Assembly (NCBI GenBank): GCA_964360635.1 | Contig: CAYHXO010000008.1 | Span: forward strand, 2,772-66,771 | DNA from: an uncultured Candidatus Peribacteria bacterium | Lineage (GTDB): Bacteria; Patescibacteriota; Gracilibacteria; UBA1369; 2-02-FULL-48-14 | DNA: 64,000 nt | Direction of reading: 5' to 3' | Part shown: positions 14,202-34,951 of the stretch, piece after piece | How positions within the stretch are numbered: position 1 is the stretch's first letter | Layout of the letters: every line of letters starts with the position of its first letter | The notes under the pieces: generated by a model | Seen by the model: the letters and a program-made list of their open reading frames with translations, nothing else | What the model was told of the DNA's origin: nothing | Database searches by the model: none | Position numbers and translations under genes: made by a program

Positions 14202-14210
14202 TTGTAATAT

Positions 14211-14912: not shown

Positions 14913-14915
14913 TTT

Positions 14916-16211
14916 TTAAGCTTTTCTAAATACTGGAAGCAACATTGTGCCATTAATTGTCAGAGATCCTTTCTTTATCAATTTCATGATTTCATCATAT
15001 GCATTTAATGTTTTTAAAATATCATCCTCTGTAATTGAATACGACATATTGTGAGCGCTACCAAATAAGATTCCACGAATTGCGCACTGTTCCACGAAAA
15101 AAGTTTTTGCCAATAAATCCTCATTCCCATCCTCATCCTTAAAAATAAGAACATTTCGTGCTGGGTATCCTTTTATAAACAGGCTTTTTTCAAGTTGATG
15201 CTTTTTAATTAGACTGTTTACTCCATCCATGAGTTTCTGTCCTTTCACTTTTAAATTTTCGATAACATTATTTTTTTTCATAAAGTTAATCACTGCTTTT
15301 GTCGCGGCAAGTGAAAGTAGTTCGCCTCCAAAAGTAAATGAAAAGAAAATCTCTTCAAAGATTTTCATAAATTTTTTAGGTCCAACGACAGCGGAGATTG
15401 GGTATCCGTTTGCCATAGCTTTTCCAAAACACGCAAGATCCGGAATTACATTGAATTCCTTTTGTGCGCCGCCAAGATTCATTCGGAACCCAGTGATAAT
15501 TTCATCGAAGATTAAAAGAGCTGAGTGTTCATTCGCCAATTTTCTTACTCCCTCCAAAAATCCGGGCTGTGGATATTCCACGCCAATCGGTTCCATTATA
15601 ATTGCCGCAAATTTACCGGGATTTCCTTCAAGTAAACTCCTCAAACTCTCAAGATCGTTGTATTTAAAAGTTTTTGTAATTTCTTTTGTGGATTCAGGCA
15701 CGCCAAGGTTTCTAACAGTTGTTCCAATATACCAATCTTGCCATCCATGATAACCACAACATGCAACCATATCTTTTCCAGTGATAGCTCTAGCCGCTCT
15801 AACTGCACCCGCAGTTGCATCAGATCCGTTTTTTCCAAAACGAACCATTTCCGCACAGGGTATGAGTTCACAAAGCATTTCACTCACTTCCGCCTCAAGA
15901 CTATTTGGCAGTGAAAACAGGGAGCCTTTATCCATTTGTACTTTTACTTCATCATTTATTTCATCCATTGAATGACCGAGTACTATAGAACATAGACCAA
16001 ATGGCCAATCAATATATTCATTTCCATCTACATCCCAAGCATGACTCCCTTTCGCACGCTCAATAAATAGAGGTGACGCCCCAACAGAAAATTGGGTGTA
16101 ACATTTGCTGAAAGTTTGAGTTCCCAGTGGTATAACTTTCTTAGCTTTCTCCAACTGCTCTACTGATTTTTTGAAATTATGTATCATACTATTTTTGTTG
16201 AATATGTGCAT
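14916..16211 (-). CDS. Class-III aminotransferase (glutamate-1-semialdehyde aminomutase-like)
   Basis: 431 aa. GKNGSDATAGAVRAARAITGK, LLIFDEIITGFR and CFGKAMANGYPISAV (PLP lysine). Confidence 0.8.
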   Translation of the reverse strand: MHIFNKNSMIHNFKKSVEQLEKAKKVIPLGTQTFSKCYTQFSVGASPLFIERAKGSHAWDVDGNEYIDWPFGLCSIVLGHSMDEINDEVKVQMDKGSLFSLPNSLEAEVSEMLCELIPCAEMVRFGKNGSDATAGAVRAARAITGKDMVACCGYHGWQDWYIGTTVRNLGVPESTKEITKTFKYNDLESLRSLLEGNPGKFAAIIMEPIGVEYPQPGFLEGVRKLANEHSALLIFDEIITGFRMNLGGAQKEFNVIPDLACFGKAMANGYPISAVVGPKKFMKIFEEIFFSFTFGGELLSLAATKAVINFMKKNNVIENLKVKGQKLMDGVNSLIKKHQLEKSLFIKGYPARNVLIFKDEDGNEDLLAKTFFVEQCAIRGILFGSAHNMSYSITEDDILKTLNAYDEIMKLIKKGSLTINGTMLLPVFRKA

Positions 16212-16911
16212 TGATTTGAAACAATTCGGGTTCCTTCTTGAATAGATCTAATATGTCTTTTAACAGAAATTCTCGATTATTTGGCCAAAGTTTTTCATAA
16301 ATTTTTCGTATGAGAGTGTAATCCTCTTCCGTATCAAGTGTCCACCTATGTAGAGAATAGTCGTTAATGTTAGATATATTTACCGCAACATCTTTGGTTT
16401 TTTCTTTAATATATGGGGTTACATGTTCGCGTTCAACGGCTGTCTCTGCATTTTCAAAAGCATCTTTAAGCAATTGAAACGTAAACACTTCAGTATCAAA
16501 ACCTCGTGGGAAAGTTCTAAGGCCAACGTTTGAAGTGTAGGTTTGAGATTTTACGGCGGCTTCAATAATTCGGTCTGTAATTTCCGGATCAATTAATGGA
16601 CAATCTGAAGTTACTCTAATAATTAAGTCGGCATTTTCTCTTTCAGCCGCTTCAAAATATCTTGTAAGTACATCGTCTTCTGAGCCTCTATAAATTTTTA
16701 TTTTTTCATCATCAAGTGCTTTCACATACTCTTCTATTATATTATCTTGCTCATTTGTCGTTGTAGCAATGACTATTAAATCAATATTATTACATCTCTT
16801 GAGTCTATCGATAACATGCCAAATTACTGGTTTACCACAGAGGTCTTTCATGACTTTCCCTGAAAGTCTTGTAGAGCCCATTCTTGTTTGAACAATACAA
16901 ACTTTTTTCAT
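16189..16911 (-). CDS. SpsF/PseF-type cytidylyltransferase (stand-alone paralog)
   Basis: 240 aa. VCIVQTRMGSTRLSGKVMKDL, RVTSDCPLIDP, HRWTLDTEEDY. Clearly paralogous to the N-terminus of 12471..14201. Confidence 0.7.
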   Translation of the reverse strand: MKKVCIVQTRMGSTRLSGKVMKDLCGKPVIWHVIDRLKRCNNIDLIVIATTTNEQDNIIEEYVKALDDEKIKIYRGSEDDVLTRYFEAAERENADLIIRVTSDCPLIDPEITDRIIEAAVKSQTYTSNVGLRTFPRGFDTEVFTFQLLKDAFENAETAVEREHVTPYIKEKTKDVAVNISNINDYSLHRWTLDTEEDYTLIRKIYEKLWPNNREFLLKDILDLFKKEPELFQINAHIQQK

Positions 16912-19631: not shown

Positions 19632-20015
19632 TTAGGCGCGATATACAAATTTCTTATTGAAAGAAAAAGTACAAAAAGTTGTCAAAACTGTAGAAATGAA
19701 AATTGATAACAAATAATAAATAGAGAATAGTGATGTCATTAGGTAAACAAGCGAAGCATTTAAAATGAAAATAACAATATATCCTTTGATAAAAACGAAA
19801 TACTTTTTTAACAAATTCAGTTTTGAGGATTCCTGAAAAGTGAAATATAAATTTCCAAAGAAAAGAAAAGTCCACGTAAACCAAGTCGCAATTAGAAATG
19901 ACCATAAATACCAAATGTTACAAAATTCTTTGAAGAAATAGGTGAATCCTATGTTAATCAAGTAAGCAAAACAGCCAACCAGAATAAATTTTATAAATTT
20001 TAAGTCGATTTGCAT
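19632..20015 (-). CDS. GtrA-family small membrane protein
   Basis: 127 aa with about 4 hydrophobic helices. FIKFILVGCFAYLINIGFTYFF is a GtrA-type N-terminus. Confidence 0.65.
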   Translation of the reverse strand: MQIDLKFIKFILVGCFAYLINIGFTYFFKEFCNIWYLWSFLIATWFTWTFLFFGNLYFTFQESSKLNLLKKYFVFIKGYIVIFILNASLVYLMTSLFSIYYLLSIFISTVLTTFCTFSFNKKFVYRA

Positions 20016-20018
20016 ATT

Positions 20019-20699
20019 TTATTTCTTTCTCACGACACAATACATTACCGCCGCCATTGTGTGAGAATTCGGCCAATGATTAAATATCAAATCCAATAAT
20101 TTAATTGGAAACAATAAGAACATTACAAGGTTTGTTATAAGTGAATTCAACCATAATGAACCAAATGAAAAAATCAGACCAAAGAGATGACAAAGGTAAA
20201 CAGTTAATGCTGAAAAAGGTCCGGCACGTGTGCCGATCTCGACCATCTCAAATTCATTGAATAAAAACTTCAAACCTTCCTTGCTATAACGCTGATAGTC
20301 GCTCGGCGACGAGTGAAATGGATACAAAAATGGAACCGCGATGTAAGCTACACCTCCTTTTTTTAAAATACGTAACATCTCAGCTACAGCTAATTTAGGA
20401 TCTTTAACATGCTCAAGAACATTGTCACAAACAATACGGTCAACACTATCCGATTCAAGTGGGGTTTTGCATATATCTGAAACAACATTTACTCCAGGAT
20501 AATTATATAAATCAACATTTTTTACAGCAGTCCCTAAGATACGAGGCCCTGAGCCAAGATTCACGATCTCACCATCAGACTTATATTTCTTCAAAAAACT
20601 TCTTGAAGATAATCCACAAAACATCATCGGTCCAAATACTTCTCCAATAAAAAAATATGTCTTCGGCCATCTCTTAAAATATTCTCTAACATCACTCAT
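20019..20699 (-). CDS. SAM methyltransferase with hydrophobic C-terminal tail
   Basis: 226 aa. IVNLGSGPR, VCDNVLEHVKDP, AVPFLYPFHSSPSDYQRYS. The last 70 aa or so are hydrophobic. Confidence 0.65.
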   Translation of the reverse strand: MSDVREYFKRWPKTYFFIGEVFGPMMFCGLSSRSFLKKYKSDGEIVNLGSGPRILGTAVKNVDLYNYPGVNVVSDICKTPLESDSVDRIVCDNVLEHVKDPKLAVAEMLRILKKGGVAYIAVPFLYPFHSSPSDYQRYSKEGLKFLFNEFEMVEIGTRAGPFSALTVYLCHLFGLIFSFGSLWLNSLITNLVMFLLFPIKLLDLIFNHWPNSHTMAAVMYCVVRKK

Positions 20700-21463
20700 G
20701 ATTTTATTGCAGTTAAAATCCAGCCAGATTGATTTTTTGGAGCAAGAACTTCGACATTGTGGACATCAAGTCCATTTAACAAAGCTTTAACTTCATCTTT
20801 TCTCCAGTAATTAGCAACCTCAGGAATCAGTTGATCAAATACAATGCTGTGAATGTGCCAAAAATCGAAAGTCGAAAGCTGTTTAAGATAAAGCGATGGC
20901 CCTTTAAAAATTTTTACAAATAAATAAAGTGGAGTTGAACAAAAGTAGCTTAAGAAATGTACCAAGCCAAGTGGCAGTTTCGAAGTGATATTCTTCCTAA
21001 TTGGATTAACAAATTTTACTATCCATTCATTTCCTTCATAGCCATAAACCCAAATCAAAATACGGCCATTTTGCTTAAGTGATTTCACAATATTTTTTAA
21101 AGCTAAAATCGGATCTTTTAAATGATGAATCACTCCAATACTAAAAGCTAAATCAAATTTATTTTCCCAATCAATCTCATAAATACTTTTTAAACTTACA
21201 TCAGAATTTTTGAATTCACTAAGAGTTTCTTTCGCTTTATCTACTGATCTTTTATCTAAGTCAAAGGCAGTCAAACTATTTGCTCCATATTTTAATGCCC
21301 AGTAACTATTTCTTCCCATTCCACAACCGGCATCAAGTATATCTTTATTTTTGAAATCAGATTCCAAAAGCGGTCCAGTCCAATTTTTGAACTGATCTTC
21401 ATACTTCGGGTCCATAAAAGAATATTTATCCCATTCGTAGCCAAATCTTTCGCTTGAAGCCAT
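20696..21463 (-). CDS. Class I SAM methyltransferase
   Basis: 255 aa. ILDAGCGMGRNS and FSIGVIHHLKDP. Confidence 0.75.
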   Translation of the reverse strand: MASSERFGYEWDKYSFMDPKYEDQFKNWTGPLLESDFKNKDILDAGCGMGRNSYWALKYGANSLTAFDLDKRSVDKAKETLSEFKNSDVSLKSIYEIDWENKFDLAFSIGVIHHLKDPILALKNIVKSLKQNGRILIWVYGYEGNEWIVKFVNPIRKNITSKLPLGLVHFLSYFCSTPLYLFVKIFKGPSLYLKQLSTFDFWHIHSIVFDQLIPEVANYWRKDEVKALLNGLDVHNVEVLAPKNQSGWILTAIKS

Positions 21464-21464
21464 T

Positions 21465-22031
21465 TTATTTTGTACATTTAAAATTAAATTCTATCTCCTC
21501 AAAACCTCCAACCCAGAATGCCCAAATTCTACTGCAGAAAGCAGGGCTTAAATTTGCAAAAAAAGATATAATTTTGTTCATTATATTAATTATGAAACGT
21601 GCAATTACACCATATCCAAGATATTTCAGAAGATGTACGTGTGCTGCCCAATGTAACTCCATTTTTTCTAGCTTATATCCAACTCCAAAATAGCCCGAAC
21701 TAGTGAAGGATTTATTGAAATAAAGTGGGAAAGTTACATCAAAACCATGTGCATGTTCGGCATGTGTGAATCCCCTAGTAAAATGTGGAACTTTAATTAA
21801 AAGCTTTCCATCCGGTTTCAAAATTCTATGCAATTCTTTCATAACAGAAAAAGGTCTATCAAGATGCTCAAGAACATGTACAGCTTCAACTAAATCAAAA
21901 GTATTATCTTCAAATGGATAAGGCATAACATTCAAATCATGCGCAACATCAGGATTCGAGAGTGGATTCCAATCAACATTCACATAGCCCTCTTTTCTAA
22001 ATTCACCCGACCCAAAGTTTAGTTTTTGCAT
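21465..22031 (-). CDS. SAM methyltransferase (Methyltransf_11-like)
   Basis: 188 aa. KLNFGSGEF, EAVHVLEHLDRP, hydrophobic tail. Confidence 0.65.
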   Translation of the reverse strand: MQKLNFGSGEFRKEGYVNVDWNPLSNPDVAHDLNVMPYPFEDNTFDLVEAVHVLEHLDRPFSVMKELHRILKPDGKLLIKVPHFTRGFTHAEHAHGFDVTFPLYFNKSFTSSGYFGVGYKLEKMELHWAAHVHLLKYLGYGVIARFIINIMNKIISFFANLSPAFCSRIWAFWVGGFEEIEFNFKCTK

Positions 22032-22103: not shown

Positions 22104-23045
22104 TTGAAATTATCGCTCATTACACCGATATATAATGAATCAAAAAATTTAAGACCATTATTTTCCGAATTAAAAAAGGTTTTAGGAGAACTTAAGTATG
22201 ATTATGAAATTATTGCCGTAAACGACGGATCTTCCGACGATTCTTTTGAAATATTAAAAGAATTATCTCATGACTCTCATGTGAAAGTAATAAATTTCTC
22301 AATGAATTATGGCCAAACTGCCGCACTTTTAGCTGGAATTGACAATGCACAAGGAGATATTATTGTAAGTATTGATAGTGATCTTGAAAATGATGCGAAT
22401 GATATTCCAAAAATGATTGAAAAAATTAATGAGGGTTATGATGTTGTTTCGGGTTGGAGAAGAAGGCGCTGGAAGGGGAAATGGATTACTAGAAAATTAC
22501 CTTCAATTTGCGCAAACTGGCTAATTTCTAAAATAACGGGCCTAAAATTGCATGATTATGGCTGCATTCTAAAAGCCTACAAAAGAGAGTCGATTTCAGG
22601 TGTAAAATTATACGGAGAGATGCACAGGTTTATAGCAAGTTATGCACTTTTATCCGGAGCAAAAATAACAGAAATCGAAGTGAACTACCGGACTAGATTA
22701 CACGGTAAAAGCAATTACGGACTTTCCAGGATTTTCAGAGTACTTTTGGACCTAGTTGTTGTTAAATTCTTACATAAATACATGGATAAACCCATGCATT
22801 TTTTTGGAGGCATCGGATTCCTCACCTTATTTTTTGGGATTTTAGCTGGAATGGCAGCCGTTGCTTTAAGGATTTTTGGAGTTGTTGATCTTGTTGAAAC
22901 TCCGCTCCCAATATTTTCCGCTCTGCTCATAATAGTTGGTGTGCAATTTATATTGATGGGAATTTTAGCAGAAATGCTTATGCGGATTTATTATGAATCT
23001 CAAGATAAAAAACCATATCGCATCAGAGAAAAAATTAACTGTTAA
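22104..23045 (+). CDS. GT2 polyprenyl-phosphate glycosyltransferase (ArnC/GtrB type, membrane-anchored)
   Basis: 313 aa, TTG start. LSLITPIYNE, IIAVNDGSSDDS, SIDSDLEND (DxD) and two C-terminal hydrophobic helices. Confidence 0.8.
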   Translation: MKLSLITPIYNESKNLRPLFSELKKVLGELKYDYEIIAVNDGSSDDSFEILKELSHDSHVKVINFSMNYGQTAALLAGIDNAQGDIIVSIDSDLENDANDIPKMIEKINEGYDVVSGWRRRRWKGKWITRKLPSICANWLISKITGLKLHDYGCILKAYKRESISGVKLYGEMHRFIASYALLSGAKITEIEVNYRTRLHGKSNYGLSRIFRVLLDLVVVKFLHKYMDKPMHFFGGIGFLTLFFGILAGMAAVALRIFGVVDLVETPLPIFSALLIIVGVQFILMGILAEMLMRIYYESQDKKPYRIREKINC

Positions 23046-23047
23046 AT

Positions 23048-24907
23048 ATGTGCGGCTTAGCAGGTTTTATCGGTGATGGAAATGAGGCAGATTTAAAAAA
23101 TATGATTGAGGCAATTCGTCACAGAGGACCTGATTCTCAAGGTATATTTTTTGAAAATAAAGTTGCCTTCGGACACGCAAGATTAAGTATTCTAGACACT
23201 AGCTCAGCCGGAAATCAGCCAATGTTTAGTGATGATAAAAGTATAGTCACTGTTTTTAATGGCGAAATTTATAATTTTTTACAATTACGAAAAGATCTCG
23301 AATTTATCGGCTACAAATTTAAAAGTGATTCAGATACTGAAGTGCTTTTGGCCGCTTATAAAGAATTCGGTGAATATTGTTTTGAAAAATTTGAAGGTAT
23401 GTTTGCAATCGCAATATATGATTTTAAAGAGGAAAAATTGATTTTAGCCAGAGATAGGATGGGTGAAAAACCACTTTATTGGACACTCATTAACAAAACT
23501 TTTATTTTTGGATCTGAACTAGCTGCGCTTATAAAACATCCGCTTTTTAAGAAAGAAATAAATTTGAATTCATTAAGCAAATATTTTTCTTTTGACTATA
23601 TCCCAACTCCTCATACGATTTACAAGAATACTTACAAACTTGAACCTGGAACTTGTTTGATTTTCAAAAATGCTGAAATATCAAAAAAAATATTTTATAA
23701 AATGAGCTTTGAAAATAATGGCCTTAATTTCACAGATGCAGTTAAACAACTCGATGAAAATTTCAATGAAATAACAAAAAGAACTTTATTATCAGATGTT
23801 CCACTTGGAGTTTTTCTAAGTGGTGGAATTGATAGCTCAACCGTTGCTTATTATGCTGCAAAAAATAGTAATTCTAAAATAAATACTTATTCAATTGGCT
23901 TTGAAGAGAAATCTTTTGACGAATCAAAATATGCACTAAAAGTGGCAAAATATCTTGGCACGAATCATCATGTAAAAATTGTGAAACAATCTGAAATAAT
24001 AGTCATCGCAAAAAATTTAGGCAATATTCTTGACGAGCCACTGGCAGATGCATCAATAATCCCTACTTATATTCTTTCAAAATTTGCACGTGAGGAGCTT
24101 ACTGTGGCGCTTGGTGGTGATGGCGGTGATGAACTTTTTGCAGGATATCCAACTTTTCAGGCGGAAAAGTTCGTGGACTTATATTTAAAGTTGCCATCTG
24201 TCATTAGAATTATTTTTGAAAAATTAATCAAAAAACTACCGGTGTCCGATAAAAATTTCAGCCTAGAATTTAAATTAAAAAAATTTATTGATGGAGTGAA
24301 ATCTGATAAAAAATATATGCACCAAAATTGGCTTGGAAATTTCACAAAAGAAGAAAAATCAGAATTATTTTTACCGCATATCTGGAATCAAATAAAAGAT
24401 TCTAATGATTTTGAAGATATTGATCGGCATATTAACGAAAATAAAATCACAGATATCCGTCAACAATCACTTTATCTTTACATGAAAACATATTTGACAG
24501 ATCAAGTACTGGTTAAAGTTGATCGCGCAAGTATGAAAAGTTCTTTAGAGGTAAGAGCGCCATTTTTAAATCACTCACTTGTGGATTTTGTGAACGCACT
24601 GCCATATAAATTTAAATTTCATGGCGTCACAGGAAAATATATTTTAAAAAAAATGATGAAAGGTAAGCTCCCATCTTCAATTATAAATAGAAAGAAAAAA
24701 GGCTTTGGTATCCCACTTGCAAAGTGGCTTAGAGAAGATCTTAAAGATTTTTGCGAAACGGTACTTTCAAAAGAGAATATTGAAATGGGAGGATTTTTTA
24801 ATTTCGAATTGATTAGTAAATTAAAAGAAGAACATTTTAATAAAGAAAAAGATCACCGCAGGAAGCTTTGGTCATTAATCATTTTCCAAATATGGTTGCA
24901 AAAATAA
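23048..24907 (+). CDS. AsnB-family glutamine-dependent amidotransferase (asparagine synthase fold), copy 1
   Basis: 619 aa. MCGLAGF (Ntn Cys2), GEIYNF, DSDTEVLL, PP-loop FLSGGIDSSTVA. Starts 3 nt after the GT2 stop. Confidence 0.85.
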   Translation: MCGLAGFIGDGNEADLKNMIEAIRHRGPDSQGIFFENKVAFGHARLSILDTSSAGNQPMFSDDKSIVTVFNGEIYNFLQLRKDLEFIGYKFKSDSDTEVLLAAYKEFGEYCFEKFEGMFAIAIYDFKEEKLILARDRMGEKPLYWTLINKTFIFGSELAALIKHPLFKKEINLNSLSKYFSFDYIPTPHTIYKNTYKLEPGTCLIFKNAEISKKIFYKMSFENNGLNFTDAVKQLDENFNEITKRTLLSDVPLGVFLSGGIDSSTVAYYAAKNSNSKINTYSIGFEEKSFDESKYALKVAKYLGTNHHVKIVKQSEIIVIAKNLGNILDEPLADASIIPTYILSKFAREELTVALGGDGGDELFAGYPTFQAEKFVDLYLKLPSVIRIIFEKLIKKLPVSDKNFSLEFKLKKFIDGVKSDKKYMHQNWLGNFTKEEKSELFLPHIWNQIKDSNDFEDIDRHINENKITDIRQQSLYLYMKTYLTDQVLVKVDRASMKSSLEVRAPFLNHSLVDFVNALPYKFKFHGVTGKYILKKMMKGKLPSSIINRKKKGFGIPLAKWLREDLKDFCETVLSKENIEMGGFFNFELISKLKEEHFNKEKDHRRKLWSLIIFQIWLQK

Positions 24908-26448
24908 AATCAGCTTTTACATGGGTCCAAGCAAATTATATGGCCTGTTTTTTCGCGATTTTTGTTGGAATCGTTATGCTTGCTCCACAAATTATTTTTA
25001 TTATAGAATCCGGCGATTTATATCAAGGAATTTATATTTTAGAGAGCGATGCTGAAGTACATTACCTTGCTAGAATCAAAGAATTTGTTGATGGCAACGG
25101 GCCTGGAAATCCATACATTTATGATTTTAAAAACAATGTCCCAACTACTTTTTTTACATATAGCGAGTGGATACTTGCACTTCCATCTATTGCATTAGGT
25201 GTATCTGTTCCAAATATGAATCTAATATACAAATTCATCCTGCCTGCTTTATTATCGCTCATTATTTATTGGTTTTTAATCCGACTTGAATTCAAGAAGG
25301 GATACGCATTGGCTGGTGTATCAATGATTATGTTTGGCAACGCGATGTTCTATCCGGAAAGTCTATCGGCATTTTTAAGATTAGATCCTATTTTCACTCA
25401 ATTTTCACTCTTCGCACGTCCTGTTAATCCCGAACTGAGTTCAATTTTTTTCTTTGTATATCTTCATATTCTTTTGTCATCGTTACAACAAAAAAGCTGG
25501 AAATGGATAATCGCGCTTGGAATCTTATTCGGAACTACATTTTATATATATTTCTATACTTTCACTTTTCTTATTGCATTAAATGTTACATTTATTGGGA
25601 TTCTATCGATTTCAAAACAGTACAGTCAAGCGCTTAAAATAAGCACGGCAACATTTATCGGATTTCTGATTGGAGTGCCTGTAATAAATGAGCTTATTCA
25701 GTTAAACAGCCATCCATATTTTATTGAACTAAGTCGAGCACTTTCAGTTACAAATTCACGTTTACCGGTTATTGGTATCACTCATATTATTTTGTATATT
25801 ATTTTTCTCATCTACTTCAAAAAAACCGAAAAAACACCTCAACTTTATTTATTACTGGCTGTATTCACTGCCGGATTTGTTGCGACAAATCAGCAAATTA
25901 TTACAGGAAGAGTGATGCATGAGGGACATTATCTTTGGTATTTTATTAGTCCTATTGTATGTGTAATTTTTCTAACAATCATACAAGCTTTTTTAAAAAA
26001 AAGATGGAAAATTATTAGTAATACATTAATATTTAGCTTAATCATTACACCTATTTTATTTAGTATATTTACTCAATATTCATCTTATAAATATTGGGTA
26101 AAAGAATATCAATCACATCAAGTATATGGGCCTATTCTTGCGTGGATAAATGAAAATACTCCTCAGGAATCCGTTATCATGGCAAACGATGCACTTTCAA
26201 ATTTAATACCAATTTATACGGGTGCAAATGTTGTATGGCAACGCTATGCTGATACTTATTTAATGGAATTCAATAGGTTATATCTAAATCCCGAACGTTT
26301 GCTGGAAAATGATCTAATAAGCGACTACCGCCTAGATTATTTAATTTGGGATAAAGAGATAAATGCAGATTGGACTATTCCTAAATCCGGATTAGATCTT
26401 CTCTTCAAAAATGATAGATTTGAGATATATTCAATTGCAAATAAATAG
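24868..26448 (+). CDS. Large polytopic membrane protein, putative GT-C-fold glycosyltransferase
   Basis: 526 aa with at least 10 hydrophobic segments. Acidic first-loop motif ESDAEVHYLARIKEF and a soluble C-terminal region of about 100 aa. The start may be 24892 (MVAKIK). Either start overlaps the AsnB-like gene end. The GT-C call is inference. Confidence 0.5.
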   Translation: MVINHFPNMVAKIKSAFTWVQANYMACFFAIFVGIVMLAPQIIFIIESGDLYQGIYILESDAEVHYLARIKEFVDGNGPGNPYIYDFKNNVPTTFFTYSEWILALPSIALGVSVPNMNLIYKFILPALLSLIIYWFLIRLEFKKGYALAGVSMIMFGNAMFYPESLSAFLRLDPIFTQFSLFARPVNPELSSIFFFVYLHILLSSLQQKSWKWIIALGILFGTTFYIYFYTFTFLIALNVTFIGILSISKQYSQALKISTATFIGFLIGVPVINELIQLNSHPYFIELSRALSVTNSRLPVIGITHIILYIIFLIYFKKTEKTPQLYLLLAVFTAGFVATNQQIITGRVMHEGHYLWYFISPIVCVIFLTIIQAFLKKRWKIISNTLIFSLIITPILFSIFTQYSSYKYWVKEYQSHQVYGPILAWINENTPQESVIMANDALSNLIPIYTGANVVWQRYADTYLMEFNRLYLNPERLLENDLISDYRLDYLIWDKEINADWTIPKSGLDLLFKNDRFEIYSIANK

Positions 26449-26509: not shown

Positions 26510-27727
26510 ATGAATCAAAAGGCTATCAAATACGATGTATGTATAATCGGCGGTGCTGGGCATGTTGGACTTCCATTGGCAGTTGCTTTTGCGTGTAGCG
26601 GATTGAAAACACTTATTCTAGACATAAATCGTGATACTCTCGAGAAAATATCATCAGGGGTATTTCCTTTCCAGGAAGAAAATGGAGATGAAAAACTTAG
26701 GGAAGCATTAAAAATGGGCAATATTTTTTGTTCAAGTTCTCCTGAAATGATTAGTGAAAGCAAAATTGTAATCTGTATCGTAGGGACGCCGATTGATGAG
26801 TATTTGAACCCTGATTTTAAGGCGATTACAAAAGTTGTAGATGATTATTTCGATCATTTTTTTGATGATCAAATATTTATTTTAAGAAGTACCGTATATC
26901 CACAAACCACCGAGAAAGTTAGAGATATTTTTAAAACACGCGGAAAAAATATAAGAATGGCTTACTGCCCTGAACGTATAGCAGAAGGAAAGGCTTTTAG
27001 TGAATTTGAAAATTTACCTCAAATTGTTTCTGCATTTGATGAAGAAACATTAAATGAAGTTTCAGGATTTTTTAGTAGGATAACTAAAAAAGAAGTTATA
27101 AAACTAAAGCCACTTGAAGCAGAACTTTCAAAGCTATTTACTAACGCATGGAGATACATAACTTTCGCAACTTCAAATCAATTTTACATGATGGCGGAAA
27201 ATTTAAACGCCGACTTTGCTTCAATTTATAAAGCAATTACAAAAGACTACCCAAGAACAAAGGCTATGCCTAGTCCTGGTTTTGCGGCGGGCCCATGCTT
27301 GTTGAAAGATACAATGCAATTGGCTGCCTATAGTAATAATACATTTAGTCTTGGTCAGGCCGCTATGTTGATAAACGAAGGAATGCCAAAATTTGTTATT
27401 GATCATATTAAGAATGAATTAAGGAAAAAAAATCCAAATGAAAGTTTTCATGGTTTGAATATTGGAATTTTGGGAATGTCATTTAAGGCAGGCTCTGATG
27501 ATGCAAGAGATAGTTTATCTTATAAATTAAGGAAAATTGCTAAATTTGAATTCAATAATGTTTTATGCCACGACCCTCTTATCAAAGATGATTCTTTCGT
27601 GGAACTTGAAGTATTACTTGAGCAATCTGATATAATTATTGTAGCGTCTCCTCATGAAGAATATAAACAAATTGAAAAACAAAAATATTCAAGCAAGACT
27701 TTTATTGATATTTGGAATATTTTATGA
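26510..27727 (+). CDS. NDP-sugar dehydrogenase (UDP-glucose/GDP-mannose dehydrogenase family)
   Basis: 405 aa. VCIIGGAGHVGLPLA, catalytic Cys context GFAAGPCLLKD, GMSFKAGSDDARDS. Confidence 0.8.
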   Translation: MNQKAIKYDVCIIGGAGHVGLPLAVAFACSGLKTLILDINRDTLEKISSGVFPFQEENGDEKLREALKMGNIFCSSSPEMISESKIVICIVGTPIDEYLNPDFKAITKVVDDYFDHFFDDQIFILRSTVYPQTTEKVRDIFKTRGKNIRMAYCPERIAEGKAFSEFENLPQIVSAFDEETLNEVSGFFSRITKKEVIKLKPLEAELSKLFTNAWRYITFATSNQFYMMAENLNADFASIYKAITKDYPRTKAMPSPGFAAGPCLLKDTMQLAAYSNNTFSLGQAAMLINEGMPKFVIDHIKNELRKKNPNESFHGLNIGILGMSFKAGSDDARDSLSYKLRKIAKFEFNNVLCHDPLIKDDSFVELEVLLEQSDIIIVASPHEEYKQIEKQKYSSKTFIDIWNIL

Positions 27728-28743
27728 AAATTTTAGTCACAGGATCATCGGGATTTGTTGCAGGTTATCTTATAGAGGAGCTTTTGAAAAATGGTCACCA
27801 AATAGTTGGTATAGATAATTTTAGTAAATACGGCCCTGTTGTAAAAAGTTATGATAAAAATCCAAATTATAAATTTGTTGAAGGCGATGCTAAGGATACT
27901 AATCTATTAAAAGAATTAATATCCGACTGTGATCAAGTGGTAGCATTAGCTGCCATGATTGGAGGAATATCCTATTTCCATGAATATGCCTATGATCTTT
28001 TGGCTGAAAATGAAAGAATTTGCGCGTCCACTTTCGATGCGGCAATTTGGGCTTTTCTAAATAAAAAATTAAAAAAAATCAACGTTATCTCTTCATCAAT
28101 GGTATTTGAAAGTACTGATAAATTTCCAAGTGGCGAGGGTGATCAGCTTTTATGTCCTCCTCCAAAGTCAACTTATGGTTTTCAAAAACTTTCGACAGAA
28201 TATTTTGCAAAAGGTGCTTATGAACAATATAAACTACCATATACAATAATCAGGCCATTTAATTGTGTCGGGATAGGGGAAAGAAAAGCAAAAGGTGATA
28301 AAGAAATTCTTTCCGGAAATGTAAAACTTGCGATGAGTCATGTTGTACCAGATTTGGTTCATAAAATTTTAAAAGGTCAGAATCCACTTCATATTCTTGG
28401 TGAAGGTACGCAAATCCGACACTACACATATGGTGGCGACCTAGCAGCAGGTATCCGGTTTTGTATAGAAAAAGAGGAGTCTATAAATCAGGATTTTAAT
28501 ATATCTACACCAGTTTCAACAACTGTAATTGAATTGGCAAAATTGATACACAAAAAAATTCACGGAGATAAAGAGTTTAATTTTATATCTGATGAACCGT
28601 TTAGCTATGACGTACAGAAGCGAGTGCCAAATACAGAAAAAGCAAAAAAAATTCTGGGTTATGAGGCAACAACAGATTTAAGCACGATGTTAGATGAAGT
28701 AATTCCTTGGATAGCGGAGCAGGTAAAATTGGGGAACATGTAA
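27724..28743 (+). CDS. NAD-dependent nucleotide-sugar epimerase/dehydratase (SDR)
   Basis: I moved the start to MKILVTGSSGFVAGYL, which gives an ATGA overlap with the upstream stop. YGFQKL is the Y-x3-K motif. Confidence 0.75.
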   Translation: MKILVTGSSGFVAGYLIEELLKNGHQIVGIDNFSKYGPVVKSYDKNPNYKFVEGDAKDTNLLKELISDCDQVVALAAMIGGISYFHEYAYDLLAENERICASTFDAAIWAFLNKKLKKINVISSSMVFESTDKFPSGEGDQLLCPPPKSTYGFQKLSTEYFAKGAYEQYKLPYTIIRPFNCVGIGERKAKGDKEILSGNVKLAMSHVVPDLVHKILKGQNPLHILGEGTQIRHYTYGGDLAAGIRFCIEKEESINQDFNISTPVSTTVIELAKLIHKKIHGDKEFNFISDEPFSYDVQKRVPNTEKAKKILGYEATTDLSTMLDEVIPWIAEQVKLGNM

Positions 28744-28747
28744 ATTT

Positions 28748-29911
28748 ATGAGGATTTTTTTCATTACATCAAAACTAAATTTCTTAAATGCCGGTGGATC
28801 GGTTACTGATTTAGATTTGAAGGCTGAGTCGATGGCAAAGGCAGGTCATGATGTTACAGTCTTAACCTTATTTTCAGGCAGGAATAGAATTAATAAAAAA
28901 TTATCATATGAATTAATTGAGGTAGACATAAATGTTTTCAACCAAATCTCAATTCAAAAGAAAATCTATGATATTTTAAAAAAATACGCAGCCTCTACAG
29001 ATAAAATACATATTGAGGGACAATATATGTATGGAGCTGGTATTTATAAGTTTTTAGGAGGGAAAGTGCCTATAATTGCCTTTTTCAATAGAGAGTTGGT
29101 GACTTGGCCGAATGATTCCGGAGATTTTTTGAATTGCAATTCATTCCTTCAAAAAATGAAAAGCAAATTTGCTTTTATATTTGAAAAATATATCGGTATA
29201 AGATTTGCAAATAAAATAGATTTTTTTATATTCACAACTCCATCTCTACGAAATGCATATTATAAATTTGGATTAAATAAAAAAGTTCCACACAAAATCA
29301 TGCCTGATTTTGTTGACTCTGAAAAAGTTATAAAAGTGATAAAAACATCTATTTCGGACGCAATTCAGAGCAGGGTAAAGAATGAAAAATTTCAAATTTA
29401 TACATCCGGAAGGCTAATTCCTGAAAAGGGTTTTGATATCATGATTAGAGCATTTGCATTGCTTGTGGGGCCTTATCATCTTGTTATTGGCGGAGATGGT
29501 CCGGAGCGAGAACACTTAATTAATTTAGTTAAAGAATTACATCTTGAAGAAAAGGTTACTTTCCCGGGCTGGCTGAGTTATGATGAAATGATTTCTTGTC
29601 TAAACCAATCAAATATTTTTGTCTTACCTAGATGGAGGGTTGAACTCTCCTCAGTAATTTTATTTGAAGCAATGTCACTCGGTCTACCATGCCTTGTTCA
29701 GAGTGGAGGCGGGCTCGCATGGCTTGTTGATAATGAGAAATTGATTTTTGAGGATAAAAATGAAATTGACCTGGCAAAAAAAATAGAATATTTGCATGCA
29801 CAAAAAGATCAATGCTCTAAACTTGGTGAATATTGTTATAACAGAATAAATGAAGAATTTGGTATAGAAAAATTAGCTAGTGAATTGGAGTCAATATTCA
29901 TAAGGATTTAG
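28748..29911 (+). CDS. GT4 glycosyltransferase
   Basis: 387 aa. C-terminal FVLPRWRVELSSVILFEAMSLGLPCLV (GT4 E-x7-E region). Confidence 0.75.
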   Translation: MRIFFITSKLNFLNAGGSVTDLDLKAESMAKAGHDVTVLTLFSGRNRINKKLSYELIEVDINVFNQISIQKKIYDILKKYAASTDKIHIEGQYMYGAGIYKFLGGKVPIIAFFNRELVTWPNDSGDFLNCNSFLQKMKSKFAFIFEKYIGIRFANKIDFFIFTTPSLRNAYYKFGLNKKVPHKIMPDFVDSEKVIKVIKTSISDAIQSRVKNEKFQIYTSGRLIPEKGFDIMIRAFALLVGPYHLVIGGDGPEREHLINLVKELHLEEKVTFPGWLSYDEMISCLNQSNIFVLPRWRVELSSVILFEAMSLGLPCLVQSGGGLAWLVDNEKLIFEDKNEIDLAKKIEYLHAQKDQCSKLGEYCYNRINEEFGIEKLASELESIFIRI

Positions 29912-30588
29912 GATTTTACTGCCTCAAACAAATATAACAAGCAAAAGTTCCCCGCATATTTTTTGTAATAAAAATTACAAATTAAATCCATCAAAAATAA
30001 TCCTGATTGAAAAATCGCCCGCAAAAATTTTGGTGCAGGAGTAGTTTGAAATCCCAAAACAAAAGGCCCAGTTCCAACAGAAACAATTCTTTTCATTTTC
30101 AAACCATGTTTTTCAAAAATCTTTTCAAGAGCTGAATGTGTATATCTGTGATAATCATCAGGATCGGCATGATAAGGGTATAAAAAGGGTACACATCCGA
30201 TAAACTTCCCACCTTTTTTCATTATACGAGCACTTTCACCAATTAAATTATCAGTATCAAAAATATGTTCTATTGTGTTGAAACAAAGTACGCTATCAAA
30301 ATTGCTCAAACTATTCGGGAATGGTTTTTCCAGATCAATCTTCATCAAATTCGGGCCTTCAGTAAAGTAGTCACAAAAAAACATTTCTGCGCCAGGATCT
30401 TTCTTAAGAAATCGAAAATAACTTGAACCGTCACTTTTTGCTCCCAAATCTATAATCTTTCCTGTTAATCTATCGAATGGATATTTTTTCAAACTTAAAT
30501 TAAGCAGTGCTCTTGGTAAACTTTTGCCTCGCATCGACTCAGCCCAAACGAATCCTAAATCTGAAAATGAAAATTTTGAATAATGCAC
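29908..30588 (-). CDS. SAM methyltransferase paralog with hydrophobic tail
   Basis: 226 aa. CFNTIEHIFD and CVPFLYPYHADPDDYHRYT. Motif I is degenerate (IIDLGAKSDG). Confidence 0.6.
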   Translation of the reverse strand: MHYSKFSFSDLGFVWAESMRGKSLPRALLNLSLKKYPFDRLTGKIIDLGAKSDGSSYFRFLKKDPGAEMFFCDYFTEGPNLMKIDLEKPFPNSLSNFDSVLCFNTIEHIFDTDNLIGESARIMKKGGKFIGCVPFLYPYHADPDDYHRYTHSALEKIFEKHGLKMKRIVSVGTGPFVLGFQTTPAPKFLRAIFQSGLFLMDLICNFYYKKYAGNFCLLYLFEAVKS

Positions 30589-30684
30589 GGCGCAAGCCTA
30601 CCGTAAAAGCTCGACTTTTTCCAATCCCTCATTTATTGTTTAGTCCCGCAGGGAGCATTAGGCCGAAGGCCGCATAATATCAAC

Positions 30685-31983
30685 ATGAAAATAACAGTCG
30701 TTGGAACCGGATACGTTGGATTGGTCACAGGAACCTGCTTTGCGGAGCTAGGCAATGATGTCATTTGTGTTGATATCGACGCTGCAAAAATCGAAAGATT
30801 AAAAAAGGGAGAAATTCCAATTTACGAACCTGGGCTTGAAGAGCTTGTTTTACGAAATTACAAAGAAGGACGTTTGAATTTTTCTACAGATTTAAAAACT
30901 GCAATTGAGGCTTGTGAAATTATTTTCAGCGCAGTTGGTACGCCTCAAGGTGGTGACGATCGTGCCGATCTTTCTGCAGTACGTGCCGTTGCTAAATCAG
31001 TTGGCCAAAATTTAAACGGATACAAAGTTTTTGTTAATAAATCTACAGTCCCTGTAGGTACTAGCAATGAAGTGAAAGATATAATCGCCTCACAAACCAC
31101 ACACCCTTTTGACGTAGTAGACAATCCTGAATTCCTTCGTGAAGGCTCAGCAGTTAAGGACTTTTTGAACCCTGACAGAATTGTTTGTGGTGTGGAAAGT
31201 GACAAAGCTCGCGAAGCGATGGAAAAACTCTATTCACCACTTGTGCGTGCCGGTAGACCTCTACTTTTCACAGACATTCATTCTGCGGAAATTATTAAAT
31301 ATGCTTCGAATGCTTTCCTTGCCACAAAAATTTCCTTCATAAACGAAATAGCAAATTTCTGTGAAGCTGCCGGTGGAGATGTAACAATGGTTGCGAAGGG
31401 AATGGGCCTCGACGATAGAATCGGTCCTCGGTTTTTGCACGCCGGAATTGGATACGGCGGAAGTTGCTTTCCAAAAGATGTAAACGCATTCATTCAAACC
31501 GGCCGTGATAAAGGTTACGAATTCAAAATTATCAAAGCTGCAAATGAAGTAAATCAAATTCAAAAGAAAATAATCATCGAAAAAATCCGCAAAGAGTTTC
31601 CTGATCTGAATGGCATAACAATTGCAGTTTGGGGACTCGCGTTCAAACCAAAAACTGACGATATGCGTGAAGCGCCTTCATTAGAAATTCTTCCTGAGCT
31701 GTTGAAATCCGGCGCAAGCCTCCGTGTTTTTGATCCTGTCGCGGCTGAAAATGCAAAAAAGATTCTTGGAACAACTAATATTGAATATCTTCCTTCACCT
31801 TATGATGCTGCCACCGGTGCAGATATCCTTCTAATAGTAACTGAATGGGATGAATTCCGTGCAATCGACCTCACACGCATTTCAAGCCTGATGAAAGGCA
31901 AATCAGTATTTGACGGAAGAAATATCTACCAGCCAGCTGAAATGGAAAAACTTGGATTTAAGTATGTGTCAGTGGGTAGATAA
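30685..31983 (+). CDS. ugd: UDP-glucose 6-dehydrogenase
   Basis: 432 aa. MKITVVGTGYVGLVTG, GGSCFPKD, GLAFKPKTDDMREAPS. Confidence 0.9.
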   Translation: MKITVVGTGYVGLVTGTCFAELGNDVICVDIDAAKIERLKKGEIPIYEPGLEELVLRNYKEGRLNFSTDLKTAIEACEIIFSAVGTPQGGDDRADLSAVRAVAKSVGQNLNGYKVFVNKSTVPVGTSNEVKDIIASQTTHPFDVVDNPEFLREGSAVKDFLNPDRIVCGVESDKAREAMEKLYSPLVRAGRPLLFTDIHSAEIIKYASNAFLATKISFINEIANFCEAAGGDVTMVAKGMGLDDRIGPRFLHAGIGYGGSCFPKDVNAFIQTGRDKGYEFKIIKAANEVNQIQKKIIIEKIRKEFPDLNGITIAVWGLAFKPKTDDMREAPSLEILPELLKSGASLRVFDPVAAENAKKILGTTNIEYLPSPYDAATGADILLIVTEWDEFRAIDLTRISSLMKGKSVFDGRNIYQPAEMEKLGFKYVSVGR

Positions 31984-32016
31984 TTGAACTCGCGTGCACT
32001 TTTTAAACTATAGCTC

Positions 32017-32559
32017 ATGTCCAACATCTTCATCATCCACGGCGTTGGCGGAACACCTGATGAAAACTGGTTTCCTTGGCTTAAATCAGAACTTGAAAAG
32101 GCCGGCCACAACGTAATCATTCCGCAATTTCCAACACCTGAAGGTCAAACTCTTGAAAACTGGCTCGCAGTTTTGAAAAACTACGAAGAATTTATCACAC
32201 CGGAAACTATTTTTGTTGGTCACAGTTTAGGCGTGCCTTTTGTATTAAACGTGCTTGAGAAACACCAAATCAAAGCTGCATTTCTTGTTGCCGGATTCAT
32301 TGGGCTTGCAGGAAATAAATTCGATGAATCAATGAAAACTTTTGCCCAAAAAGAATTCAACTGGGAAAAAATAAAACAAAATTGCAAAAATTTCACAATT
32401 TTCCACTCGGACAACGATCCTTACATTAAGTTTGAAAAGGCTGAAGAACTTGCAGCATTACTTAACGCGAAAGTGACGCTCGTGCCTGGTGCCGGCCATA
32501 TTAATCAATCAGCCGGTTACACAAAATTCTATCTGCTTCTTGAGAGAATTCTTGGGTAG
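32017..32559 (+). CDS. Small alpha/beta serine hydrolase (YdeN/RBBP9-like)
   Basis: 180 aa. IIHGVGGTPDENWFPWL and the GHSLG nucleophile elbow. Confidence 0.6.
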   Translation: MSNIFIIHGVGGTPDENWFPWLKSELEKAGHNVIIPQFPTPEGQTLENWLAVLKNYEEFITPETIFVGHSLGVPFVLNVLEKHQIKAAFLVAGFIGLAGNKFDESMKTFAQKEFNWEKIKQNCKNFTIFHSDNDPYIKFEKAEELAALLNAKVTLVPGAGHINQSAGYTKFYLLLERILG

Positions 32560-32612
32560 AATTTATCTTGGAGAATTGTGACTAGCCTGGTTTCATGCTA
32601 ACTTACACGAGC

Positions 32613-33536
32613 ATGAAAATTTTAGTCACAGGCGCGGCGGGTTTTATTGGATCGCATAGTGCGAAGGCACTTCTCTCGCGTGGCGATACTGTCTACGGTA
32701 TTGACAATTTTAATGATTACTATGAGGTTGAACAAAAAGAGAAAAATGCAGAAAATTTAAATGTCTTTCGTGTCGATATTTGCGACGAAGCAGCAATAGA
32801 TAAAATCTTCGCTGAACTTAAACCTGATGTACTTTTACATCTCGCCGCACGTGCCGGCGTTCGCGCCTCGATTGCAGATCCTGTGCTTTATCATAATGTG
32901 AATGTTCTTGGCACAAATATTCTGCTTGGAGCTTGCAGAAAACATGGAGTAGCTAGAATTGTTTCAGCCTCCAGTTCATCAGTTTACGGAAACCAAAAAA
33001 AGACCCCATTTTCAGAAACTGACGAAACAGAAAATCCAATAAGTCCTTATGCCGCAACAAAAAGAGCAGGAGAAAATCTATGTTACGCATATTCAAAAAT
33101 GTACGGACTTAGCATAACTTGCCTAAGATTTTTCACTGTTTACGGTCCAAGTGGCAGGCCAGACATGGCTCCATTAATGTTTACAAAAGCAATTGATGCA
33201 GGTGCAACAATAAAGCGTTTTGGCGACGGCAGTTCTATGCGTGATTATACTTTTATTGATGATATCGTTTCAGGAATCGTATCAGCCATTGATGAGCCTT
33301 TCGATTTTGAAATTATAAATCTTGGTAATAATAAACCTGAAAAATTGCATGTTTTAATTTCGACTATTGAAAAAAGCCTCGGAAAAAATGCCATCATTGA
33401 AGAGCTTCCAATGCAACCAGGCGATGTTGAAATGACTTATGCGGATATCACAAAAGCCCAAAAACTTCTTGGCTACAATCCTCAAACAACTCTTGAGCAA
33501 GGAATAGAAAAATTAGTTAACTGGTATAAAAAATGA
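32613..33536 (+). CDS. NAD-dependent epimerase, UDP-glucuronate 4-epimerase-like
   Basis: I moved the start to MKILVTGAAGFIGSH. SSSSVYG and YAATKRAGE. Lies in the same transcription unit as ugd. Confidence 0.7.
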   Translation: MKILVTGAAGFIGSHSAKALLSRGDTVYGIDNFNDYYEVEQKEKNAENLNVFRVDICDEAAIDKIFAELKPDVLLHLAARAGVRASIADPVLYHNVNVLGTNILLGACRKHGVARIVSASSSSVYGNQKKTPFSETDETENPISPYAATKRAGENLCYAYSKMYGLSITCLRFFTVYGPSGRPDMAPLMFTKAIDAGATIKRFGDGSSMRDYTFIDDIVSGIVSAIDEPFDFEIINLGNNKPEKLHVLISTIEKSLGKNAIIEELPMQPGDVEMTYADITKAQKLLGYNPQTTLEQGIEKLVNWYKK

Positions 33537-34432: not shown

Positions 34433-34482
34433 AAAAAATCCTGAGATGATACAGTCGCTCACTAATAATAACCACAAATGAT

Positions 34483-34761
34483 ATGTTTGCATCAGAAGTA
34501 CCAGTCAAAGAACTTACACAGGATGAGTTGGTAAGATCAATACAATCGGATTCACGACGTGCTGCCGATCCTTTACGTAGAATTAATTATGAACATGCTA
34601 AATTAGATGCAGAACACGCGATTTTAAGTCCTGAAGATGCAGACATATTAAGCAGAGCAGCTGCAATCGTTAAAAAAATTCGTGATACAGTACCTTCTGT
34701 TTTTGATAAATCAACTACACCTGTAAGTAGAGAAGGTCTTGGCCCAGATGGTGGACGGTAA
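34483..34761 (+). CDS. Hypothetical small protein (92 aa), no recognisable family
   Basis: ATG-initiated ORF standing alone between two sugar operons and followed by strong hairpins. Coding status is unproven. Confidence 0.4.
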   Translation: MFASEVPVKELTQDELVRSIQSDSRRAADPLRRINYEHAKLDAEHAILSPEDADILSRAAAIVKKIRDTVPSVFDKSTTPVSREGLGPDGGR

Positions 34762-34897: not shown

Positions 34898-34951
34898 AGC
34901 AAAGCCACTTTATATTGCAAAAACCTGTTAAAGTCATTAACCTTCACGAGT

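Follow-up and report, generated by a model that had tools for sequence, protein, structure and literature searches.

The stretch of DNA analysed here, a window of 64,000 nt from contig CAYHXO010000008.1 of an uncultured Candidatus Peribacteria bacterium, contains a surface-glycan island of about 55 kb. Two cassettes were found in it, each comprising genes for a family 2 glycosyltransferase (GT2), an AsnB-family amidotransferase and a polytopic membrane protein (MP1 or MP2) that is predicted to be a glycosyltransferase of the GT-C fold. GT2, AsnB, GT-C and GtrA genes are each present exactly twice among the approximately 60 genes of the window. Hainich groundwater (well H52, 0.2-µm fraction) yielded contigs with the identical locus, and the named homologues of its proteins all belong to Patescibacteria, namely, Paceibacterota, Minisyncoccia, Vogelbacteria and Parcubacteria.

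The open reading frame map shows the order GT2–AsnB–polytopic membrane protein twice, tightly packed, at 22104-26448 and 38007-42551, and agrees in all six genes with an earlier description made from the letters of the DNA (the sequence-only reading). All six genes are on the forward strand. The first cassette contains the gene GT2-1 (22104-23045, TTG start), encoding an ArnC/GtrB-type polyprenyl-phosphate glycosyltransferase of 313 aa; the gene AsnB1 (23048-24907), encoding a class-II glutamine amidotransferase/PP-loop synthetase of 619 aa; and the gene MP1, located at 24892-26448 with an ATG start (518 aa) or at 24868-26448 with a TTG start (526 aa). The ATG at 24892 agrees with the N-termini of homologues and with a 518-aa database entry and is favoured; the size of 526 aa given earlier applies to the TTG start only. 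MP1 overlaps the end of AsnB1, as had been noted, by 16 nt from the ATG or 40 nt from the TTG, while the distance from the GT2-1 stop to the AsnB1 ATG is 2 nt rather than the 3 nt previously counted.

The second cassette contains the gene GT2-2 (38007-38726), encoding a soluble PpgS/AglJ/DPM1-like polyprenyl-phosphate glycosyltransferase of 239 aa; the gene AsnB2 (38734-40563), encoding a second glutamine amidotransferase of 609 aa; and the gene MP2 (40566-42551), encoding a predicted GT-C enzyme with an N-terminal four-helix extension. The reading frame of MP2 opens at 40515 and its start is ambiguous, with ATG codons at 40515, 40539, 40566 and 40593; from the ATG at 40566 the protein has the 661 aa assigned to it before. 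The gap of 7 nt between GT2-2 and AsnB2 stands, and that between AsnB2 and the ATG at 40566 is 2 nt instead of 3 nt.

Recent duplication as the source of both cassettes, which the sequence-only reading had also rejected, is ruled out by their divergence: the AsnB proteins are 36% and the GT2 proteins 27% identical, and the membrane proteins are alike at the profile level only (hhalign probability 95%, E 3e-8). The chance of two ordered triplets under random gene order is about 1e-6, by a crude null.

Both GT2 proteins match Pfam Glycos_transf_2 (E 4e-31 for GT2-1 and 7.5e-32 for GT2-2). GT2-1 aligns over its full length with the NCBIfam model of ArnC, NF007986 (positions 2-310 against 7-311 of 316), with 196 bits, not reaching the cut-off of 529 for equivalog status; its full-length match to PgfS, 151 bits, is likewise below the equivalog cut-off. 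Two C-terminal hydrophobic helices are located at about residues 230 and 257 of GT2-1. GT2-2 has no transmembrane helix and matches AglJ with 85 bits and PpgS with 59.5 bits, both below the equivalog cut-offs. The earlier distinction between a membrane-anchored ArnC/GtrB-like and a soluble DPM1-like enzyme is accordingly retained.

Structure predictions point to the GT-C fold in both membrane proteins, as had been suggested from their likeness to ArnT and PMT. The AlphaFold2 model of MP1, built with 29 homologues, has a predicted local distance difference test (pLDDT) value of 93, and its best 27 PDB matches in Foldseek are all GT-C enzymes (STT3/OST, DPY19, AftA, ArnT, PglB and ALG9; E down to 1e-7, TM-score about 0.5), while no Pfam or NCBIfam model, and hence neither PMT nor PMT_2, matches MP1. 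The model of MP2 is less confident than that of MP1 (pLDDT 77.6); its top 16 PDB matches are GT-C enzymes (STT3, Pmt4 and AftB), and Pfam PMT or PMT_2 is found in five MP2 homologues, MP2 itself having only a weak match to DUF1616. The acidic motif that had been placed just after the first transmembrane helix of both proteins is in this position in MP1, where D61/E63 are invariant among the closer homologues. In MP2 the invariant D169/E170 follow the fifth predicted helix; the position needs correction because a conserved four-helix extension of about 130 aa precedes the GT-C core, and the motif lies past the first helix of this core.

MP1 is a member of a large GT-C family without Pfam coverage. 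With a threshold of E<=1e-3, the HMMER search gives 3,819 representatives of the family, and with E<=1e-30 it still gives 1,487 clusters; of 73 representatives scanned, only one has a weak PMT_2 match, so that essentially none is matched by a GT-C model of Pfam. Fusions of the MP1 domain with an N-terminal GT2 (P0176, P0213 and P0279) or an N-terminal GtrA (P0224 and P0189) were also found. These fusions place the MP1 family in GtrA/GtrB/GT-C-type three-component glycosylation, and they are strong independent evidence that it works with a polyprenyl-phosphate GT2 and a GtrA protein.

Both AsnB proteins contain the Pfam domains GATase_7 and Asn_synthase, and Cys2 (MCG) and SGGIDS (within FLSGGIDS), pointed out earlier, are kept in both. 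The glutaminase residues R45, N71-G72-E73 and D96 are invariant in the AsnB clade and align with those of E. coli AsnB, and the PP-loop motif is invariant in the homologue alignment. Judged by these residues, both enzymes retain what is needed to hydrolyse glutamine and to adenylate a carboxylate. The best named family of AsnB1 is TIGR03108 (XrtA/PEP-CTERM amidotransferase), although neither AsnB1 (583 bits) nor AsnB2 (450 bits) reaches its cut-off of 816.9; AsnB2 scores higher on TIGR01536 (470 bits). Among solved structures, 7YLZ, a hydroxyamidotransferase, matches AsnB1 best, and E. coli AsnB comes behind it. Relative to E. coli AsnB, two residues are inserted in the clade between the positions of the Asp-binding D and R, and about 80 residues beside the synthetase site, after GGDGGDELFAGY.

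Exchange and conservation of the cassettes

Comparison with L113, a locus of a very close relative, showed that the second cassette has been replaced as a whole. The flanks in the two genomes are 83-98% identical at the protein level (GDP-mannose dehydratase 98%, DegT 94%, methyltransferase 98%, GtrA 96%, family 4 glycosyltransferases (GT4) 85-97%), whereas the cassette proteins are 32% (GT2) and 44% (GT-C) identical and the middle genes, AsnB in the window and DegT in L113, are unrelated. In blastn, the left flank aligns at 88.4% (L113 971-4196 with window 34787-38012) and the right flank at 90.5% (L113 7835-13920 with window 42466-48551). Homology breaks at 38012, six bases into GT2-2, and returns at 42466, where 86 nt remain to the MP2 stop; no alignable nucleotide similarity was found by blastn between these breakpoints. 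The segment 38013-42465 with GT2-2–AsnB2–MP2 thus stands against a cassette GT2–DegT–GT-C of 3,638 bp in L113 (4197-7834). The near-identical flanks and the replaced GT2, middle gene and GT-C gene indicate that the triplet was exchanged as one block. Since GT2 and GT-C change along with it, the middle enzyme most plausibly sets the sugar that both transferases handle.

The order of the first cassette, in full or as near variants, recurs in five loci of relatives. It is GT2–AsnB–MP1 in L114, where AsnB is 74% and MP1 58% identical to the window proteins, GT2–GtrA–AsnB–MP1 family in L110 and GT2–AsnB–methyltransferase–MP1 in L091; in L109 two or three methyltransferase genes stand between AsnB and the MP1-family gene, and L006 has the order GT2–AsnB–GtrA–methyltransferase–MP1–methyltransferase–MP1. 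GtrA is thus located inside the module in L006 and L110. In L108, where AsnB is 71% identical, no MP1 gene was found behind GT2–AsnB, and a PMT_2 protein is encoded 3.5 kb away; the window segment 24910-30669, containing MP1 and the genes of 26510-29911, is an insertion relative to L108 and has no counterpart there. Eight remoter loci of the MP1 family (<=32% identical) contain no AsnB gene, and DegT is present instead in two of the eight. A metagenome scan with a reduced MP1 alignment gave 17 loci, many of which are too short to judge.

All six relatives with a membrane protein of the MP2 family (L008-L010 and L111-L113) have the order GT2–DegT aminotransferase–GT-C, the rest of the operon being syntenic. 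With DegT in the middle slot of all of them, the order of the second cassette is not conserved; the expectation of a conserved triplet order therefore holds for the first cassette and fails for the second. Nor is AsnB obligatory, as the sequence-only reading had supposed, given these six loci and the eight MP1-family loci without AsnB. At least two sugar-defining enzymes are interchangeable in this slot, AsnB being one of them. The coupling of the three genes in function, which had been proposed from the repeated order, is upheld by the block exchange in L113, the GT2 and GtrA fusions with MP1 and the recurrence of the first cassette in relatives. At L109 1-745, 6 kb upstream of a GT2–AsnB1-like pair, the locus end truncates a further gene, which encodes an AsnB2-like amidotransferase (611 aa), and several AsnB paralogues per glycan island seem to be common.

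A profile scan of species-representative genomes, whose listed matches all lie outside Patescibacteria and are not a random sample, gave at least 80 AsnB loci with 35-52% identity to AsnB1; a genome scan with the single sequence of AsnB1 gave no match. In 28 of the 76 listed loci with enough upstream sequence, and in 13 of the 20 most similar loci among those listed, the gene directly before AsnB is a GT2 gene in the same orientation, separated from it by −16 to 211 nt. The GT2–AsnB pair was found in Acidobacteriota, Verrucomicrobiota, Bacteroidota, Chloroflexota, delta- and alphaproteobacteria and others. The paired GT2 proteins, all with C-terminal helices, are 44-57% identical to GT2-1 and score 286-377 bits against it versus 37-77 bits against GT2-2; the pairwise identities of GT2 and AsnB correlate (r 0.62, Mantel p <= 2e-4). 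By these comparisons, the GT2–AsnB pair alone is clearly conserved outside Patescibacteria.

A conserved third gene behind the pair outside Patescibacteria was considered and ruled out by the heterogeneity of the downstream genes. The most similar non-Patescibacteria AsnB among those listed (52%) comes from L011 (CAYFPM010000003.1), a contig labelled as part of a gammaproteobacterial metagenome-assembled genome, where its neighbours are an MP1-family protein (506 bits) and two further polytopic proteins of large size; misbinning or horizontal transfer could explain this locus.

Surroundings of the cassettes in the island

Upstream of the first cassette, on the reverse strand, a GtrA-family small membrane protein of 127 aa, the partner of this cassette, is encoded at 19632-20015 (Pfam GtrA_DPMS_TM, E 2.5e-13), followed at 20019-22031 by genes for three class-I S-adenosylmethionine (SAM) methyltransferases of 226, 255 and 188 aa (Pfam Methyltransf_11/23/25), which are divergent from GT2-1 and are also kept in L108. 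Behind MP1, genes for a nucleotide-sugar 6-dehydrogenase (405 aa), a short-chain dehydrogenase/reductase (SDR) of the epimerase/dehydratase type (343 aa) and a GT4 (387 aa) occupy 26510-29911 (+; Pfam, NCBIfam). The following block, 30685-34432 (+), encodes a TuaD-like UDP-glucose 6-dehydrogenase of 432 aa (NCBIfam TuaD, 572 bits), a serine hydrolase and two GalE/TviC-like SDRs, and likely serves the supply of uronic acid. The GC content of 30001-36000, a region that spans the TuaD-like dehydrogenase/SDR block, itself conserved with L108 and L114, is 0.39-0.40 versus 0.29-0.34 in the surrounding island.

The left flank of the second cassette, 34952-38010 (+), encodes GDP-mannose 4,6-dehydratase, a DegT aminotransferase (404 aa) and an SDR (302 aa); its proteins are 83-98% identical to those of L113, and the gmd product is over the NCBIfam cut-off with 430 bits. 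In the right flank, 42493-44660, genes for a GT4 (-), a methyltransferase (-) and a GtrA protein of 137 aa (+) were annotated with Pfam; this flank is 85-98% identical to L113, and its order is common to L008-L010 and L111-L113. A GtrA gene beside a class-I methyltransferase gene near each cassette, at 19632-20699 and 43569-44660, had been described before and was recovered with Pfam PF04138, the GtrA genes themselves lying at 19632-20015 (-) and 44247-44660 (+).

Of all neighbours, the class-I SAM methyltransferases recur most constantly. In the window they are encoded at 20019-22031, 29908-30588 and 43569-44288; in about ten loci, including L006, L007, L091, L092, L094, L096, L098, L102 and L109, the gene just before an MP1-family gene encodes a methyltransferase, and in Acidobacteria and Alphaproteobacteria methyltransferase genes are found beside the GT2–AsnB pair as well. 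Sugar O-methylation and formation of a carboxyl methyl ester are possible roles.

In total, the island encodes two nucleotide-sugar 6-dehydrogenases, several SDR epimerases, the GDP-mannose dehydratase, aminotransferases and at least seven GT4 enzymes. Despite this number of GT4 genes, no Wzx, Wzy, ABC exporter or other protein with at least seven transmembrane helices besides MP1 and MP2 was found in the 64-kb window, and export of the main glycan is not encoded within it. A block for a nonulosonic acid of the pseudaminic/legionaminic-like type is located at 167-16911, with genes for a PseB-like dehydratase, DegT, NeuB, an ATP-grasp protein, a CMP-transferase fused to a GFO oxidoreductase, a GNAT/polysialyltransferase-like protein and a Capsule_synth protein. 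A fusion of GT4 and polysaccharide deacetylase (710 aa) is encoded at 53620-55752 (-), and a reading frame of more than 1,094 aa, 60719-64000 (+), runs past the window end; the AT skew is strongly positive there.

Proposed pathway, alternatives and known systems

The types of both GT2 enzymes, the GtrA genes, the predicted GT-C folds and the fusions support well the assignment to GtrA/GtrB/GT-C systems made in the sequence-only reading, and each triplet is very probably the core of a three-component system of extracytoplasmic glycosylation. The role of AsnB within it follows less firmly: on balance, the enzyme appears to amidate a uronic acid destined for the GT-C enzyme, the three components being extended by a swappable fourth, sugar-defining enzyme.

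In such a pathway, the UDP-sugar 6-dehydrogenases and 4-epimerases of the locus would provide UDP-hexuronic acid. AsnB would hydrolyse glutamine at its N-terminal Cys and adenylate the sugar carboxylate at the PP-loop domain, giving the carboxamide (uronamide). GT2 would load the sugar onto polyprenyl phosphate on the inner side of the membrane, and amidation might take place on the nucleotide sugar, as with WbpS, or just after this transfer on the lipid-linked sugar, as with ArnD. The GtrA-family protein would help the lipid-linked sugar to cross the membrane, and on the outside MP1 or MP2 would hand the sugar over to its acceptor, either a glycan or a protein. The middle gene would set the delivered sugar; GT2 and GT-C would co-vary with it, and with such co-variation the three genes would be inherited and exchanged as one cassette.

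A sugar carboxylate as the substrate is favoured by gene context. Genes for a TuaD-like UDP-glucose dehydrogenase and two GalE/TviC-like SDRs are located directly behind GT2–AsnB in L108, their orthologues are also close to GT2–AsnB in L114 and the window, and SDR epimerases flank the pair in Acidobacteria. A setting like that of WbpS, with a UDP-sugar 6-dehydrogenase and a C4 epimerase nearby, is therefore present in the window, L108 and L114, a comparison by context only. Uronic acid as the substrate, the stage of amidation and the nature of the acceptor are inferred.

Several observations weigh against this proposal. The contexts in Patescibacteria, in which GT2 precedes AsnB in 7/7 and an MP1-family GT-C gene lies at most three genes behind in 6/7, speak for a link of AsnB with GT2, but they are few and were in part picked via AsnB itself. 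The gene behind the cross-phylum pair varies (SRP54, a hydrolase, an ABC/GGDEF protein, hypothetical proteins). A GT-C neighbour of these pairs is demonstrable in a minority, with PMT_2 in L015 and L020; the other signals, from single-sequence hhalign against the MP1 and MP2 profiles, are weak, and the GT-C partner outside Patescibacteria is for this reason not established. Among the 80 cross-phylum AsnB loci listed, only two have a UDP-sugar dehydrogenase within 5 kb. The pathway just upstream of the second cassette yields a GDP-6-deoxy-amino sugar, not a uronic acid, so that a carboxylate for AsnB2 is not evident. Both AsnB proteins pass the broad NCBIfam asparagine-synthase model TIGR01536. 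By the Asp-binding D/R criterion of PMC8554201, D is kept in both and the R position is R in AsnB2 and K in the AsnB1 clade; the sequences are therefore compatible with activity on aspartate but do not demand it. Amidation of a uronic acid is plausible and fits the context.

A different role, to which we give a low probability, is that AsnB supplies a uronamide nucleotide sugar to the GT4 enzymes of the main chain, as WbpS does, or amidates a repeat unit linked to polyprenyl diphosphate, its position in the cassette being a matter of operon packaging. The at least seven GT4 genes and the nucleotide-sugar pathways of the island fit this role, as do the precedent of WbpS, which acts on a main-chain sugar (PMC6025236), and the presence of GT4 instead of GT2 before AsnB in L011 and several cross-phylum loci. 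The exchange in L113 speaks against it, because GT2, the middle enzyme and GT-C were replaced jointly while the GT4 genes remained 85-97% identical; so does the orthologous GT2 that adjoins AsnB across phyla where nothing else is kept, as in L013 with SRP54 behind the pair.

It is still less probable that both enzymes are true asparagine synthetases or amidate the meso-diaminopimelate (mDAP) of peptidoglycan stem peptides, as AsnB/LtsA of Gram-positive bacteria do, and are located in the island through co-regulation or chance. Apart from the match to TIGR01536 and the conserved Asp-binding D, the source annotations of the clade read asparagine synthase, and AsnB homologues of several monoderm bacteria, some of them promiscuous, amidate mDAP rather than make asparagine (PMC8554201). 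Such a role would leave unaccounted for two divergent paralogues in one glycan locus, each between GT2 and GT-C, the interchange of AsnB2 with a sugar aminotransferase and the adjacency to one GT2 orthologue kept across phyla; further points against it are the large insertion by the synthetase site in comparison with E. coli AsnB, and a nearest solved homologue that is a non-asparagine enzyme. Coincidence in a crowded glycan locus, where GT2, AsnB-like and membrane protein genes are all common, is effectively refuted as the source of the repeated order by the block exchange and the fusions, together with the recurrence of the order in independent genomes and its very low chance under random order. 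The AsnB enzymes, annotated as asparagine synthases, most likely tailor a surface sugar.

A cassette of this composition shares features with several known systems. In the Gtr systems of O-antigen glucosylation in Shigella and Salmonella and in CsbB/GtcA/YfhO of Gram-positive bacteria, GT2, a GtrA-family protein and GT-C are encoded together, as in the window, the acceptor-specific GT-C being the variable part and the cassettes being exchanged horizontally. These systems use an unmodified UDP-sugar without a tailoring enzyme, whereas in the window AsnB, and in relatives DegT, is encoded between GT2 and GT-C. GT2 of the window also co-varies with the cassette (32% identity between alleles), whereas GtrA and GtrB are described as interchangeable among serotypes (PMC3259042).

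The Arn operon (PmrHFIJKLM), which serves the aminoarabinose modification of lipid A, likewise has sugar-tailoring enzymes, among them a DegT-type aminotransferase, together with an ArnC-type GT2, the GT-C enzyme ArnT and flippase subunits of small size; ArnC is the best named match of GT2-1, and the sister cassettes with DegT closely resemble the Arn layout. In this pathway, the tailoring step of ArnD acts on the lipid-linked sugar. The window differs in having neither formyltransferase/decarboxylase nor deformylase genes and an amidotransferase as the tailoring enzyme, and lipid A is most likely absent from the organism. In mycobacteria, galactosamine modification of arabinogalactan involves the soluble GT2 PpgS (Rv3631) of about 240 aa, the GtrA-like Rv3632 and the GT-C enzyme Rv3779. 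GT2-2 matches the PpgS model with its 59.5 bits, far under the equivalog cut-off of 370, and the PpgS system has no amidotransferase.

A lipid-linked uronic acid as a GT-C donor is known from rhizobial lipopolysaccharide (LPS), where RgtE, a GT2, makes bactoprenyl-phosphate-linked galacturonic acid, used outside the membrane by the GT-C enzymes RgtA-D,F (PMC7663294); that system lacks an amidation step and modifies lipid A or the LPS core. The pentofuranose systems of Citrobacter youngae O1/O2 (GT136) contain a donor synthase, a flippase, a GT-C enzyme and an auxiliary enzyme dictating the sugar, and auxiliary tailoring enzymes of this kind set the delivered sugar in three-component systems, which are widespread and modular (PMC11127046). 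They differ from the window in a donor synthase using phosphoribosyl pyrophosphate, a MATE-type flippase and an auxiliary epimerase instead of an amidotransferase.

The sequence-only reading had taken an AsnB-type amidotransferase in such a module to be undescribed. Uronamide-forming AsnB-type enzymes in glycan loci are in fact already known: WbpS-type homologues are genetically required for HexNAcAN (PMC6025236), and candidate amidotransferases were named for GalNAc3NAcAN in Bordetella (PMC2615507). Like the window, the WbpS/WbqG loci have the AsnB-family gene beside genes for a UDP-sugar 6-dehydrogenase and a C4 epimerase, the likeness being one of gene context; the enzymes differ in feeding Leloir glycosyltransferases of the main chain and are not reported beside a polyprenyl-phosphate GT2 or GT-C. 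In open-access papers, no link of asparagine synthase-like genes to GtrB, ArnC, YfhO or GT-C was found.

A more far-reaching form of the proposed pathway, put forward tentatively and with more doubt than confidence, is that GT2 and AsnB form a membrane-associated two-enzyme unit, in which GT2 makes polyprenyl-phosphate-linked hexuronic acid and AsnB amidates the lipid-linked form, and that GT-C enzymes of at least eight bacterial phyla use the resulting polyprenyl-phosphate uronamide. If this were true, polyprenyl-phosphate uronamide would represent a previously undescribed class of lipid-linked sugar donor, most of the asparagine synthases annotated in Patescibacteria genomes would be tailoring enzymes of surface glycans, and the exchange of amidotransferase and aminotransferase cassettes would be a mechanism of serotype conversion in ultra-small bacteria.

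Three-component systems of GT2, flippase and GT-C are a general route of bacterial surface decoration, to which a built-in amidotransferase would add uronamides. Amidation of a sugar destined for GT-C would also give a concrete function to the widespread GT2–AsnB gene pair, which was found across phyla as a by-product of this analysis, together with the large GT-C family beyond Pfam. The findings caution against taking an asparagine synthase annotated in Patescibacteria as evidence of amino-acid biosynthesis. Finally, the exchange of a whole cassette between near-identical genomes shows diversification of the surface glycan in ultra-small, possibly host-attached bacteria, for which the cell surface is likely a key interface with hosts and phages.

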